A stretch of 64,000 nt of DNA from Promethearchaeota archaeon (GCA_048938105.1 JBHLMN010000001.1:128001-192000), one strand, 5' to 3'. Shown: positions 7,580 through 11,984, counted from the stretch's first letter. Program-made: numbers and translations. Notes: generated by a model not told the origin, from the sequence alone.

Positions 7580-8608
7580 ATGAAATGTCTTCTTGCAGAT
7601 CAAGGAGTACCTCAAGGGGACTGTTTAACTATTACTCCTAGTGGGGATAAGAAACGAGCGTGTGAAGTAACTCTAAGAAAAACTAATGGCGTATATGAAC
7701 GATTAATAAAATCAATGCACTTATCACGGCCTGAGGATTATTTTTCTGTCTACCAAAGTGGATGCAACCACGCTTGTTTGAAATGTCACTCATCAGAGTT
7801 CTCAAAAAAAGCAAATGGGGATTGGATAAGCATCGACATGTTAGCAGTAATAGCAAGTGATTATTTAAGATCAGTAACAGTCAAAGAACCACGTTCTAGA
7901 GCCACCATGTGGCATGCTGAGGATCTCTGTCTCCATTGTGGCTCATGTATCCTGTTTGGCAGTCCATCCAAGTTTTGTCCTGGTAAACTAAAACCCTCAC
8001 AAATTGTCCTCTCTCCTCAAGGGTTCGGGCCCGCTCGAAATATCCTTGCATTTACAGGGGGGGATCTGACTTGTAATCCTCAGTATTATGCATTGGCGGC
8101 CGAAAGAATCAAAGATGTAACCGATGAAAAGCTTTGGGTATTGGTGGAAACCAATGGTTACGCATTGACAAAAAAAAATCTGGAAATTTTACGTGACGGT
8201 GGGGTCGATTCCTTTTGGTTGGATATTAAAGCATATGACGAAGTCAGCTATCAGAAATTATGTGGAACACCTAATTCAACAGTCTTAGATAGCCTAGCTT
8301 TGATGATTGATCTAGATTTTACAGTAGAGGTTCTCACATTGTATATTCCTGGGATTGTGGAAACTGATCAACACCGACAGATTGCTCGCCTTATAGCTGA
8401 TGTCGATTCTACTATCCCTACGACCTTATTGGCCTTCTTTCCCTCATATAAATTAAGGGATACCCGATCTCCTACTTTTAGTGAGATGATGACTAGTTAT
8501 TGGGTTTTGAGAGAAGAAGGATTGAACAATCTAAGACTTGGTAATATTGGAGTGTTTGCTAAAACTGATGAACAGGTGGAAGTCGTAAAATCATTAAGAT
8601 TAGGATAA
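7580..8608 (+). CDS. Radical SAM protein, PFL-activating-enzyme-like, with extra Cys cluster
   Basis: CNHACLKC (CxxxCxxC), FTGGD, ETNG, LDIKA; additional CLHCGSC-x9-C. Confidence 0.9.
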   Translation: MKCLLADQGVPQGDCLTITPSGDKKRACEVTLRKTNGVYERLIKSMHLSRPEDYFSVYQSGCNHACLKCHSSEFSKKANGDWISIDMLAVIASDYLRSVTVKEPRSRATMWHAEDLCLHCGSCILFGSPSKFCPGKLKPSQIVLSPQGFGPARNILAFTGGDLTCNPQYYALAAERIKDVTDEKLWVLVETNGYALTKKNLEILRDGGVDSFWLDIKAYDEVSYQKLCGTPNSTVLDSLALMIDLDFTVEVLTLYIPGIVETDQHRQIARLIADVDSTIPTTLLAFFPSYKLRDTRSPTFSEMMTSYWVLREEGLNNLRLGNIGVFAKTDEQVEVVKSLRLG

Positions 8609-8651: not shown

Positions 8652-9119
8652 ATGAATATGTTCAACGTTTATCCGATTGGTTATGTAAGAAAAGAAAAGG
8701 AAAAAGAGTATTTAGAAATTTTAAAGGAATTTCGCTTAGGGCTCTACCGTCTTGAAACAATCTCTCACGCTTTTATACTCTGGTGGATTCATGAAAGCGA
8801 CACTCACGAAGCAAGAAACGTCAGAAAAACAATCCCAAGAGTGAGAAATAGCTTTTTCCCTCCACAAGAGATGGGAACTTTCGCAACACGCTCTCCAAGA
8901 CGTCCAAACCCCCTAGGATTAACATTAGTTAAAATTACAGAAGTGACTGAAGACCAAGTAGTTGTAGATCATATTGATGCATTTGATGGTACACCAGTTC
9001 TAGATATTAAACCCTATCTCCCAAATGGTGACCGGATCGATGAAGGAGTGGTCCTACCGCAATGGTTTCAGCACCTTTTAACCTCACGACCAGCTGACCG
9101 AAGGGAGAATCAAATGTGA
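8652..9119 (+). CDS. trmO: tRNA m6t6A37 methyltransferase TrmO (TsaA/YaeB)
   Basis: PIGYV, GTFATRSPRRPNPLGLT and DAFDGTPVLDIKPY family motifs. Confidence 0.92.
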   Translation: MNMFNVYPIGYVRKEKEKEYLEILKEFRLGLYRLETISHAFILWWIHESDTHEARNVRKTIPRVRNSFFPPQEMGTFATRSPRRPNPLGLTLVKITEVTEDQVVVDHIDAFDGTPVLDIKPYLPNGDRIDEGVVLPQWFQHLLTSRPADRRENQM

Positions 9120-9120
9120 A

Positions 9121-9435
9121 GTGATTAATCTGGCAACAAATGTTTTCCAAAGAGAAGCTCGGCTTTACACACAAATAGGGAGTTCTAAAATTCAATGTGA
9201 TACCTGCTGGCATCAATGTAAAATCTCGGAAGGAAAATTTGGTCGTTGTCACACTCATACTAACATCGAAGGAGTTTTATATTGTGTAAATTACGGGTTA
9301 GTCTCTTCTTTTTCTATTAATCCAATTGAAAAGAAACCCTTATTCCATTATTATCCTAATTGGTTTGCTTCAACAATAGGCAGCTATTCGCTACTATCTG
9401 GAATCGTTACCTCGACGATTGGTGGTTTTTCATAA
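9121..9435 (+). pseudogene. Orphaned 5' fragment of an AmmeMemoRadiSam radical SAM gene (amrS); homology ends at 9390
   Basis: Aligns ungapped with the N-terminus of 10950..11984 (QCxTCWHxC...GRC, NPIEKKPLFHYYP, TIGS), about 47 of 89 residues identical by manual count. Similarity stops at the codon before the first Cys of CxxxCxxC, followed by 14 unrelated codons and a stop. Confidence 0.88.
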
Positions 9436-9543
9436 GGGGGATGGTATTATCTCCTAATGATATCGAAGTTGATGTTATCTTAGGATAAGATTTAATATGA
9501 ACTGTTTTTTCTTAGGTAAATATGATCTTTAAATTAGCGCCTA

Positions 9544-9560
9544 CCAAAGTAATATAAATA
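9544..9560 (+). promoter_or_regulatory. Putative archaeal BRE/TATA promoter for the endonuclease-amrS unit
   Basis: CCAAAGTAA then TATAAATA (9553-9560), about 50 bp upstream of ATG 9608. The AT-rich background lowers specificity. Confidence 0.35.
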
Positions 9561-9607
9561 TTAGAGCCTTTTCTAACTTATAACAGAAAAAAATTGAGAA
9601 GAAGAAT

Positions 9608-10948
9608 ATGGGAGCTGAGAAAAAAATCGGGAGACCAACAAAAATACCTCCTAAAAGTCAATTCATTGAAGCTTGTAAATTATGTGAGACAATAGAAGAA
9701 GTTGCTCGGAAATTAGACATTTCTAAACGATCTGCTTATAGATATGCTAGATTCTATGGATTAAATCTCAATCATTTTGAAATTCCCTTTAGGTACCCAC
9801 CCCTTCCTGACTCAAGAAGAGTCCGATATATGATTTGCAAAATGTTTCTAAGGAATCACTCAGCAATTGAAACGTACAAACAGTTAAATAAATCGCTATA
9901 TTGGAAGAGAGAAAGGATTACAAGGATTTTAAGAGATGAAGGATTTGTCATCTATCGAAAGAATGCATGTAAGATAGTTAAACATCTTAATGGAGCTCAT
10001 AATAAATCAATCTCTAATGAGCTACAAAAAATAATCGATGGAGAAGTACTAGGTGACGGTCAATTGTTTTCTCAGTCTAAAGACTTCAAACAGAAGAGTA
10101 TTAACAAACCTCTTTCAGAATATTTACTTACTTTTAATAGACTTACGAACCTAAACAAAAAAGAAATTACTAATGATAGAGAACTCAAGAAAATAATTTC
10201 CGAATATAACAGCCTTATTCGGAGTCTCCTGAAAGCTCAAGTGGCTGGATTTCATATTCACAAATCACTACTTGAGGAGCCATGGATTAGATGGCTAGCA
10301 AACCTATTTAACAAGCATAATTATTCAGTAACCATAGTTCCTCCCAAAAAAACAGTATATATGATTACACAGAGTACAGTACAACTTCATCAAGAGTATA
10401 AGAAATGGTATTCGAAGAAAAGAAAGGAAATTCCAACCACTTTACGATTAACACCAACTACCTTTTTACACTGGTATGTTGGAGATGGATCCGCTTCAAA
10501 AAATACGTTAACATTAAATACACAAAGTTTCAATGAAAAAAACCATAAATTTCTGCAGGAACTTCTAAAGAAAACCATAAGAGTCAAAACAAGAATTCAA
10601 CCATATTTTAGCTGGAGATATCCACGAAAAACACTCTTTAAGCTTTGTATTACTTCAAAAACTAATATAAACAAAATTTTTGAGTACCTTGAGAATGCTC
10701 CAAAAGATTCTTTATCATTAGCAAAACAACTACTTCCTTGGAAGTTTGATTGCAAATTAAGGAAAAAGGATGTATATAATCCTAAAAAAAGGTTTGTAGC
10801 CGATAATTACTTGAATTTTTTTGTAAAAACGGTAAAAAAGGTTGAAAAAAACCCATTGGAACGAAGTAGACGTCTTAATGTTCTGTTTCCTTGGAAATTT
10901 CCAATAAAGAATGAGATGCATATAGCAATAAATTGTAATAAGAATTAA
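9608..10948 (+). mobile_element. Free-standing double-motif LAGLIDADG homing endonuclease with N-terminal HTH
   Basis: Motif 1 IIDGEVLGDG and motif 2 LHWYVGDGS followed by LTLNTQSF (LAGLIDADG_2 / I-SceI-like pattern); N-terminal GRPTKI + IEEVARKLDISKRSAYRY HTH; very Lys-rich. Confidence 0.8.
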
Positions 10949-10949
10949 A

Positions 10950-11984
10950 ATGAATTTAACACGTAAACAATTCAGAAGTAAGGCTTTATTATATCGTTGT
11001 CTGCATAATTCATCTGTTCAATGTAATACATGTTGGCATAAGTGTATTATTAAGGAAGGGGGTCATGGTAGATGTAAAACTCGCATTAATATCAGAGGCA
11101 CATTATTTACGGAAACGTATGGGATGATTTCTACATTATCACTCAACCCAATCGAAAAAAAACCATTATTTCATTATTACCCTGGTTCGTATGCTTTAAC
11201 AATCGGGAGCATAGGATGCAATTTTTCATGTCCATGGTGTCAGAACTGGAGTATTAGTAAGTGTTACCCATCTGAAGTTCATTATCCTCGATTTATGAGC
11301 CCTACTGATCTAGTCAATAGGACAGAAAAGAATGATAAAATAAGCGGGATATCAATTTCGTTCAATGAACCCACATTATCATTGGAGTACTCATTAGATG
11401 TATTTCATCAATGCAAACCTAAAACGTATCGAATGTTCGTGACTAATGGTTATATGACGAGTCAAGCGCTAAAATTGCTCATTAAAGCAGGAATGAGTGG
11501 AATGACTGTGACAGTCAAGGGGAGTAAAAAAACAGTTAAACAATATTGCAAAACAAATGTGGAAAAAGTATGGGAAAATATCCGAACAGCCTTCGAAAAA
11601 GGAGTGCATATTGAAGTGGTCTGTCTGATAATTCCTACGGTTAATGACTCAATCGAATTTTATCATGAAGTTGCAATACGGTTAAGGGATATTAATTCCA
11701 ACATTCCACTTCATTTTACCAGATTCCACCCTGATTATCAGTTCACAAATGTGGACTCGACTCCAATCAAAACATTAGAAGTAGCTCATGGAACGGCGCA
11801 ATCTGAAGGACTATCGTATGTCTACTTAGGAAATGTACCTGGTCATCCTTTAGAAAATACTTATTGTCCAAATTGTCAAACATTACTCATCAAACGAACC
11901 ATTTACCAGATAGATATGAAATATGATGTCAAGACTCAACGTTGTCCCTCCTGTGGAACATCCATTCCTATATTTCTTGGTTAA
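10950..11984 (+). CDS. amrS: AmmeMemoRadiSam system radical SAM enzyme
   Basis: CxxCxHxC...C N-terminus, PIEKKPLFHYYPG, GCNFSCPWCQNW, NEP, PLHFTRFHPDY, YVYLGNVPG, C-terminal CPNC/CPSC. Confidence 0.92.
   Translation: MNLTRKQFRSKALLYRCLHNSSVQCNTCWHKCIIKEGGHGRCKTRINIRGTLFTETYGMISTLSLNPIEKKPLFHYYPGSYALTIGSIGCNFSCPWCQNWSISKCYPSEVHYPRFMSPTDLVNRTEKNDKISGISISFNEPTLSLEYSLDVFHQCKPKTYRMFVTNGYMTSQALKLLIKAGMSGMTVTVKGSKKTVKQYCKTNVEKVWENIRTAFEKGVHIEVVCLIIPTVNDSIEFYHEVAIRLRDINSNIPLHFTRFHPDYQFTNVDSTPIKTLEVAHGTAQSEGLSYVYLGNVPGHPLENTYCPNCQTLLIKRTIYQIDMKYDVKTQRCPSCGTSIPIFLG

Follow-up and report, generated by a model that had tools for sequence, protein, structure and literature searches.

In a 64,000-nucleotide stretch of the genome of a Promethearchaeota archaeon (GCA_048938105.1, JBHLMN010000001.1:128001-192000; here called the window, with positions counted along its whole length and all features on its plus strand), the gene amrS, which encodes a radical S-adenosylmethionine (SAM) enzyme of the AmmeMemoRadiSam system, is present as one complete copy and one additional 5′ end, with a gene for a LAGLIDADG endonuclease between them. 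In order, the locus consists of trmO, the additional amrS 5′ end (N1), a short spacer, the endonuclease gene and the complete amrS, whose first part (N2) runs without interruption into the remainder of the gene (the C part) at the CxxxCxxC radical-SAM motif (Table 1). Here, we describe this arrangement, its copies in other archaea and the evidence that it is probably the product of a homing element that brings a foreign gene start with it.

The amrS locus and its parts

The complete amrS starts one base past the endonuclease stop, carries the motif as CNFSCPWC at codons 90-97 and scores 244.2 bits on TIGR04337 (AmmeMemoRadiSam system radical SAM enzyme), for which the cut-off is 220. N1, which is annotated as a hypothetical protein, begins with a GTG one base past the trmO stop, the place at which intact amrS likewise begins in relatives with an empty site. 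It aligns without gaps to the N terminus of the complete gene (47 of 87 residues identical, E = 3e-33; 47 of 89 in the multiple alignment) and, on its own, matches TIGR04337 with 59 bits (E = 3e-16) over profile positions 2-68 only. The homology ends at TIGSYS, opposite TIGSIG, at the codon preceding the first Cys of CNFSCPWC. An earlier reading by a model that saw only the DNA (the sequence-only reading) had proposed this layout, and open-reading-frame listing together with profile and pairwise matches recovered every feature where it had been placed, including the roughly 53% ungapped identity between the two N termini. That reading closed N1 at position 9390, which holds for the amrS homology, but the open frame continues for 14 codons to a stop at 9433-9435.

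The 217 bp between N1 and the endonuclease gene, previously taken for unrelated DNA, fall into two parts. The first 45 nucleotides are a decayed duplicate of the amrS codons just ahead of the Cys motif. In register, they match the amrS of two empty-site genomes, G017 and G019, at 26 and 24 of 45 positions (99th percentile of shuffled sequences, 22), and they align locally to nucleotides 227-271 of the G019 gene; they are unlike the window's N1 end, unlike its N2 end, and missing from the closest copy of the element (loci L047/L052), in which N1 directly meets a TGA. This relic may be a trace left by a previous host or by repair through end joining, and it fits a fragment of an earlier host's N-remnant carried along with the element. 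A previous alignment by eye, which had set the sequence following N1 against the CNFSCPWCQNWSISK region (FS*GGWYYLLMISK), was rejected: 9391-9435 are read as a copy of the codons before the Cys motif, and the DNA from 9436 onward is spacer common with L047.

This second part is conserved in all six copies in a multiple alignment (window, L047, L052, L046, L053 and L048). Its nucleotide identity to L052 is 78-87%, compared with 60-77% for N1, and it contains TATA-like tracts, with TTTAAA at 9528-9533 and a ATATAAATA-like tract near 9552-9560 (TTTAAA and ATAAATA-like tracts across copies). It is presumed to be the promoter region for both the endonuclease gene and amrS.

The free-standing endonuclease matches LAGLIDADG_2 (PF03161; 50.3 bits against a cut-off of 25, E = 3.5e-13) and carries N-terminal helix-turn-helix modules. 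Its two LAGLIDADG motifs, IIDGEVLGDG (G145, E146, D150 and G151) and HWYVGDGS (G292, D293 and G294), are invariant in 7 amrS-linked proteins, and across 48 relatives the conservation of D150 and D293 is 90% or higher. A structure model from the 48-sequence alignment (predicted local distance difference test score, pLDDT, 92.4; predicted template modelling score 0.84) has the two-domain alpha-beta-beta-alpha-beta-beta-alpha fold of the solved enzymes, with the motif aspartates at helix ends and strands following; an earlier model from a 7-sequence alignment (pLDDT 56) was discarded. The best solved folds found with Foldseek were I-SceI (E = 5e-7), I-WcaI, PI-PfuI, I-OnuI and I-DmoI, and a sequence search of the PDB gave no meaningful match. 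I-SceI and I-WcaI, monomeric enzymes of yeast mitochondrial rRNA introns, share with the model two LAGLIDADG helices that each end in an acidic residue (template modelling score 0.62-0.69 by target), but they are only about 12% identical in sequence, are encoded within introns and are without the N-terminal helix-turn-helix region of about 130 residues. Against L052, nonsynonymous differences of about 0.1 per site compared with 0.36 at synonymous sites indicate that the gene is under purifying selection. We predict that the product is most likely an active, monomeric, double-motif LAGLIDADG homing endonuclease.

An endonuclease profile reached 63 cluster representatives at E < 1e-30. Among more distant relatives, proteins of about 550 residues that are 31% identical to the window's (L038, L039 and L040, from the same-genus genomes G017, G008 and G002) are encoded convergent with an S-adenosylhomocysteine hydrolase gene at one conserved place. 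No orphan gene fragment was found beside them, and they may be intergenic free-standing or domesticated copies.

Table 1. Features of the amrS locus, in window positions
Feature	Position	Strand	Description
Second radical-SAM gene	7580-8608	+	342 aa, upstream of trmO; weak matches to YjjW-type activase and AmrS profiles
trmO	8652-9119	+	Pfam TrmO_N, E = 7.5e-29; host flank
N1, putative orphaned resident amrS 5′ end	9121-9390	+	90 codons; free of stops and gaps
Relic of a third amrS allele	9391-9435	+	Last 14 codons ahead of the Cys motif, LLSGIVTSTIGGFS, in frame with N1; TAA replaces the Cys codon
Element spacer	9436-9607	+	Presumed promoter region
LAGLIDADG endonuclease gene	9608-10948	+	446 aa; own start and stop
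Complete amrS	10950-11984	+	344 aa
N2, putative foreign replacement amrS 5′ end	10950-11216	+	Codons 1-89; continuous with the C part
CxxxCxxC radical-SAM motif codons	11217-11240	+	Junction of transferred and resident parts; presumed endonuclease target region
C part of amrS, putatively resident	11217-11984	+	Codons 90-344

Copies, empty sites and separate histories

A search with N2 alone retrieved amrS proteins that are 80-88% identical over this part, and all of these N termini lie downstream of a related endonuclease gene; the endonuclease itself, used as query, returned proteins 42-79% identical to it. The order of N1, spacer, endonuclease gene and N2-C recurs in four other organisms. 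In L047/L052 (one organism), trmO is followed by an N1 ending in GSYS and then a TGA, the endonuclease gene (80% identical), amrS, DUF4443 and UroD. L046 has a radical-SAM gene, a B12-radical-SAM gene, an intact 89-codon N1 ending in VGSY, about 560 nucleotides, the endonuclease gene (64%) and a full amrS; L053 has an N1 ending in GSYS, the endonuclease gene (58%) and amrS; and L048 has a radical-SAM gene, a stop-broken and truncated N1, the endonuclease gene (56%) and amrS. Elsewhere, the endonuclease gene (42%) lies immediately 5′ of a more distant amrS without N1 (L049), or survives as a remnant of its last 66 codons upstream of an N2-type amrS (L044/L045).

Wherever N1 is undecayed (window, L046, L047/L052 and L053), it stops at the codon before the first Cys of the motif, and in-frame stops follow N1 in all copies. 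All endonuclease relatives at least 42% identical lie directly upstream of amrS, and the occurrence in unrelated contexts that the sequence-only reading had named as a point against a homing element was not seen among them; relatives at most 36% identical lie in unrelated places. Wider scans with the endonuclease protein, and then with an endonuclease alignment, found no additional loci in genome or metagenome contigs. As all six elements have a homologous spacer and the same junction, they appear to go back to one founding event. Two alleles free of the endonuclease (L054 and P0007) begin like N1 but have a joint like that of N2. Recombination of N1 with N2 within the conserved NPIEKKPLFHYYPG stretch would leave such a gene, and the two alleles are possible cases of element loss.

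The host assembly comprises 5.85 Mb in 65 contigs, and the named relatives of its proteins are labelled Hodarchaeales or Hodarchaeota. The endonuclease gene is single-copy there and is the sole PF03161 gene (51.6 bits in the genome search). Across 82 species genomes of the class, an endonuclease of the amrS-linked type occurs in one, the window's own, with no close relative in the others. The window's amrS has full-length orthologues (57-72% identical) in seven same-genus genomes among the 40 relatives examined, and ten loci are empty, none with the endonuclease (G019, G011, G020, G013, G017, L054, L058, G004, G010 and L057). G019 and G011 show the full synteny of the window (radical-SAM gene, trmO, amrS, DUF4443 and UroD) with a single uninterrupted amrS, the kind of empty site that the sequence-only reading had anticipated. 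In G020, G013 and G017, as in L054 and L058, the upstream radical-SAM gene is directly followed by amrS. The second radical-SAM gene of the window is itself kept beside amrS in most relatives, at times without an intervening trmO. The endonuclease-free amrS of L058 and the element-bearing L046 belong to different organisms from the same metagenome (JGI 3300041085); donors and potential recipients therefore co-occur.

The three parts of amrS differ in their relationships. At the amino acid level, N1 is 71, 72 and 64% identical to the N part of G019, G011 and G020, respectively, and 53% identical to N2, which reaches only 60, 60 and 55% with the same three genes; for the C part, the corresponding values are 75, 69 and 71%. 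In the tree of the N part, the endonuclease-linked N2 sequences form one clade (support 93/93 with P0009, 82/74 without L049), and the N1 copies fall among the empty-site genes. In the tree of the C part, L053 and L048 group with the empty G020 (99/99) and the endonuclease-linked genes are scattered. Approximately unbiased (AU) tests reject an endonuclease-linked clade for the C part (p = 3e-6) and the grouping of L053 and L048 with G020 for the N part (p = 0.002). The change is abrupt along the gene: identity of L053 to G020 is 40-76% before alignment column 95, which is the first Cys, and 82-93% after it, with the opposite course for identity to the N2 clade. Together, these comparisons indicate that N2 is linked to the endonuclease, whereas N1 and the C part follow their hosts. 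Such a discordant N2 beside host-like N1 and C parts had been predicted from the sequence alone and is borne out by identities, trees and AU tests, and a history common to N2 and the C part, which would have spoken against it, was not seen.

Synonymous differences per synonymous site (pS, with intervals by bootstrap) also change in a step within amrS. Between the window and L047/L052, pS is at host level for trmO (0.77), N1 (0.75), DUF4443 (0.68) and UroD (0.70), and falls to 0.36 for the endonuclease gene and 0.27 (0.16-0.41) for N2, to return to 0.65 (0.56-0.74) in the C part, with 0.60-0.71 in its four sub-segments. Pooled values are 0.35 (0.29-0.41) for the endonuclease gene and N2, and 0.70 (0.65-0.74) for trmO, N1, the C part and the downstream genes. 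A second pair, L046 and L053, has the same pattern, with 0.26 for N2 and 0.43 for the endonuclease gene, against 0.73 for the C part and 0.71 for N1. In a sliding comparison with L052, nucleotide identity is 83-92% between about 9436 and about 11250 and 60-80% outside, with the fall at about 11250-11280. Because N2 and the C part belong to one gene, codon bias is excluded as the cause of the step, and because the step lies at the Cys motif, we conclude that the unit of spacer, endonuclease gene and N2 moved horizontally, after the lineages had diverged. For N1, dN/dS was uninformative, since synonymous sites between the hosts are saturated; a count of departures from residues conserved in the in-group, used in its place, found only one or two.

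A putative homing element and the alternatives

We consider it probable that the locus carries a homing element with neither intron nor intein, made up of the spacer, a free-standing I-SceI-like endonuclease gene and the foreign first 89 codons of amrS, a view close to that of the sequence-only reading, in which an endonuclease with a foreign 5′ end had invaded the resident gene, and which the copies, the empty sites, the discordant histories and the pS step now support. In the window, the mobile unit would span about 9391/9436 to about 11250, and N2 and the C part would together encode an intact, chimeric AmrS.

The cycle that we envisage would begin with cleavage of an endonuclease-free amrS at the first Cys codon of CxxxCxxC or immediately beside it. 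Repair from an allele that bears the element would follow, with recombination on the right side in the conserved motif and the C part, and on the left side in the N-remnant that the donor carries upstream of its endonuclease gene. The recipient's own N part would thereby be orphaned as a new N1, still behind trmO, and N2 would join the recipient's C part in frame, so that a functional, chimeric amrS would be expressed downstream of the endonuclease gene. The new N2-C joint would resist cleavage through differing codons around the first Cys: empty alleles of the N1 type have TAY/TTT TCN TGT, and element-linked genes have ATA/GTA NNN TGC in 5 of 6 copies. As the element already carries the N-remnant of an earlier host, N1 most likely provides the left-hand homology for subsequent rounds of homing. 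We infer the cleavage activity, its exact target, the immunity of the joint, the spacer promoter and the route of repair; such a mechanism would explain an N1 that follows its host and is nearly undecayed, the common end codon of N1 and the right breakpoint at the motif. All stages of the cycle are represented, from fresh copies (window, L046, L047 and L053) through a decayed N1 (L048) and a decayed endonuclease gene (L044) to endonuclease-free alleles (L054 and P0007).

Several observations weigh against this interpretation. A joint like that of N2 (ALTIGSIS) occurs naturally in the endonuclease-free genes of G013 and G004, so that the codon differences are not exclusive to the element and are only candidates for immunity. 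The near absence of decay in N1 in four lineages fits recent invasions and equally fits selection on N1. The N part is short, at about 90 columns, with just 82-93% support for the N2 clade, and the AU p-values are weakened by the groups having been named after the trees were seen. The window's C part has no resolved place in its tree, and that it is resident is concluded from the synonymous-site step against a single relative. No polymorphism for the presence of the endonuclease was seen within one species. Finally, all relatives are metagenome-assembled, and a 36-kb contig that covers the whole stretch at 100% identity may itself be the source of the window's DNA.

The alternative that survives best, although we regard it as unlikely, is a single old insertion, inherited vertically with differential loss, whose endonuclease no longer drives transfer or never did. 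Six elements with one spacer and one junction do point to a single founding event, some copies are decaying (N1 in L048, the endonuclease gene in L044), and the sublineages are old, with the endonuclease genes of the window and L046 65% identical and at a pS of 0.57. Vertical descent is, however, difficult to reconcile with two independent genome pairs in which the pS of the element is half that of the host parts and changes sharply at the junctions, or with C parts and N1 that track the hosts when N2 does not. It also leaves an N1 that is nearly undecayed despite saturated synonymous sites between hosts, and a patchy presence among equally distant relatives.

Less plausible still, and in our view rather improbable, is that the gene encodes a domesticated, WhiA-like DNA-binding regulator of amrS within a host operon, with N1 retained as a small Cys-rich protein. 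The N-terminal helix-turn-helix modules, the tight coupling to amrS, which starts one base past the endonuclease stop, and an N1 that is open, conserved in four lineages and placed for translation behind trmO are all compatible with such a role, and WhiA is found among the weaker fold matches. It appears there only at ranks 34 and 50, however, behind active endonucleases, and the catalytic Asp of both LAGLIDADG helices is invariant in the clade and at least 90% conserved among the 48 relatives. The gene is moreover missing from most relatives and moves horizontally together with N2, and N1 has decayed in L048 and is absent from L049.

Two further explanations have very little left in their favour. 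The host genome does contain another amrS, a 40%-identical paralogue on a different contig, and comes from metagenome assembly, but a tandem partial duplication or decaying paralogue beside an unrelated endonuclease gene is contradicted by the AU test, which rejects a clade of the window's N1 and N2 (p = 0.00026) and upholds the earlier view that this is no recent tandem duplication, and by N1 itself, which resembles orthologues of the same synteny and is just 37-41% identical to paralogue clade B; mis-assembly is contradicted by the same architecture in independent assemblies of at least five other data sets, by contigs of a second sample that bridge the endonuclease/N2 and N2/C joints, and by pieces 97-99% identical to the window in a mangrove metagenome of another study. 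Equally remote is an intein, a group I or II intron or a split-intein 'fractured gene' that would join N1 to the C part in RNA or protein: a highly conserved catalytic motif is a typical insertion point of inteins and introns, but, in agreement with the sequence-only reading, Pfam detects no Hint or intein domain at the locus and Rfam no family, introns included, at E ≤ 1 (cmscan of 9000-11400, both strands, 4227 families), N1 is trailed by in-frame stops in all copies, and such splicing would be redundant because the downstream amrS is already complete and above the AmrS cut-off.

Related systems and wider meaning

Fungal mitochondria offer the closest parallel to the proposed homing element. 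Endonuclease open reading frames have made gene hybrids in Allomyces macrogynus atp6, in Glomus sp. atp6, atp9, cox2 and nad3, in Rhizopus atp9 and in Mortierella cox2 (PMC3630166 and work cited there), and other fungal mitogenomes contain similar partial 3′ duplications beside degenerate endonuclease genes (PMC6279837). As at amrS, a free-standing endonuclease gene (there LAGLIDADG or GIY-YIG) lies in a conserved protein gene without an intron, a foreign gene end is fused in frame, the native end is orphaned alongside and clusters with close relatives, in contrast to the discordant inserted end, and sister taxa have empty sites. In the fungal hybrids, by contrast, the 3′ (C-terminal) end is replaced and the endonuclease frame lies downstream, whereas here the 5′ end is replaced, and the element must therefore also provide the upstream region and the start. 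The setting also differs, as an archaeal chromosome rather than an organelle is involved, the target is the Cys motif of a radical-SAM enzyme, and several copies document the breakpoints and the cycle. The amrS element thus works like the fungal gene hybrids but is a 5′-end, archaeal-chromosome variant of them.

Other free-standing endonucleases are less similar. Those of T4-like phages (SegF, with its 'intronless homing', and MobE) and F-CphI of cyanophage S-PM2 likewise lie outside introns and inteins, and are known to cleave an endonuclease-free homologue, the repair of which co-converts the flanks (PMC2790892, PMC6083498), a cleavage that at amrS would be analogous. They differ in being GIY-YIG or HNH enzymes that act in phage co-infection, and in lying between genes or splitting a gene into two working pieces, with no duplicate gene end. 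Haloferax chromosomes carry free-standing LAGLIDADG_2 genes, which have been suggested to promote the gene conversion of adjoining DNA (PMC5867893); these too are archaeal, chromosomal and outside any intron or intein, but they have no flanking similarity to a protein gene, replacement end, orphan fragment or defined target. In an incomplete library, our search found no report of a 5′-end replacement, nor of such an element in Asgard archaea or in a prokaryotic cellular chromosome, and no paper on an AmmeMemoRadiSam protein with an intein.

A related arrangement occurs at another gene. In the same-genus genome G001 (contig 2; L037, 3-3391), a complete aldehyde dehydrogenase gene is followed, on the opposite strand, by a gene for a 553-residue helix-turn-helix and LAGLIDADG protein, 31% identical to the window's endonuclease, and, beyond it, by an orphan copy of the last 39 codons of the dehydrogenase, 87% identical to the in-frame end at the amino acid level. 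In G016 (L056), the same dehydrogenase directly adjoins the next gene without an endonuclease, which makes this an empty site, and the orphan end of G001 is slightly nearer to G016 (37 of 39 residues) than is the in-frame end (34 of 39). By its sequence, this appears to be a 3′-end replacement of the Allomyces atp6 type at a conserved GxGRE motif, and it suggests that this protein family makes wider use of gene-end replacement in the archaea concerned.

Gene-end duplication around cargo also seems to be common at the amrS locus itself. In L046 (7073-10369 and 10821-12719) and L054 (5971-10982), extra genes lie between amrS and the convergent DUF4443 gene, bracketed by partial duplicates, with no endonuclease or integrase seen. 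The cargo includes a 738-residue open reading frame without a Pfam match in L046, and VapBC, a SEC-C-domain gene and an AAA_14 gene in L054. The duplicates are 3′ fragments of amrS (residues 160-342 in L046 and 242-342 in L054), a 3′ fragment of DUF4443 in L054 and, in L046, a 5′ fragment of DUF4443 around a UPF0175/DUF3368 pair.

The usual view is that homing endonucleases persist in essential genes because self-splicing introns or inteins conceal them. The amrS element would represent a third way to invade such genes, namely to bring a spare copy of the severed part, which had previously been documented for 3′ ends in fungal mitochondria; in the 5′-end version, the element must also take over the expression of the gene. 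Fresh, decaying and healed copies, with breakpoints at the nucleotide level, point to the exchange of whole protein segments between diverged archaeal lineages at a catalytic motif, a process that can mislead single-gene phylogenies and also annotation, as N1 is annotated as a hypothetical protein. The endonuclease and its presumed site are, in addition, a candidate pair of rare-cutting nuclease and target.

On the basis of the six copies of the amrS element and the one 3′-end dehydrogenase case with an empty site, we tentatively put forward a broader idea, which at present may well prove too wide: that Asgard archaea of the Hodarchaeales type, which belong to the archaea most closely related to eukaryotes, are home to a family of free-standing, I-SceI-like endonucleases that as a rule carry portable 5′ ends, with an upstream region, or 3′ ends. 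If true, this family would make chimeric host genes at conserved catalytic motifs, as an archaeal chromosomal counterpart of the mitochondrial gene hybrids, and would provide a natural route to the swapping of segments within essential genes.

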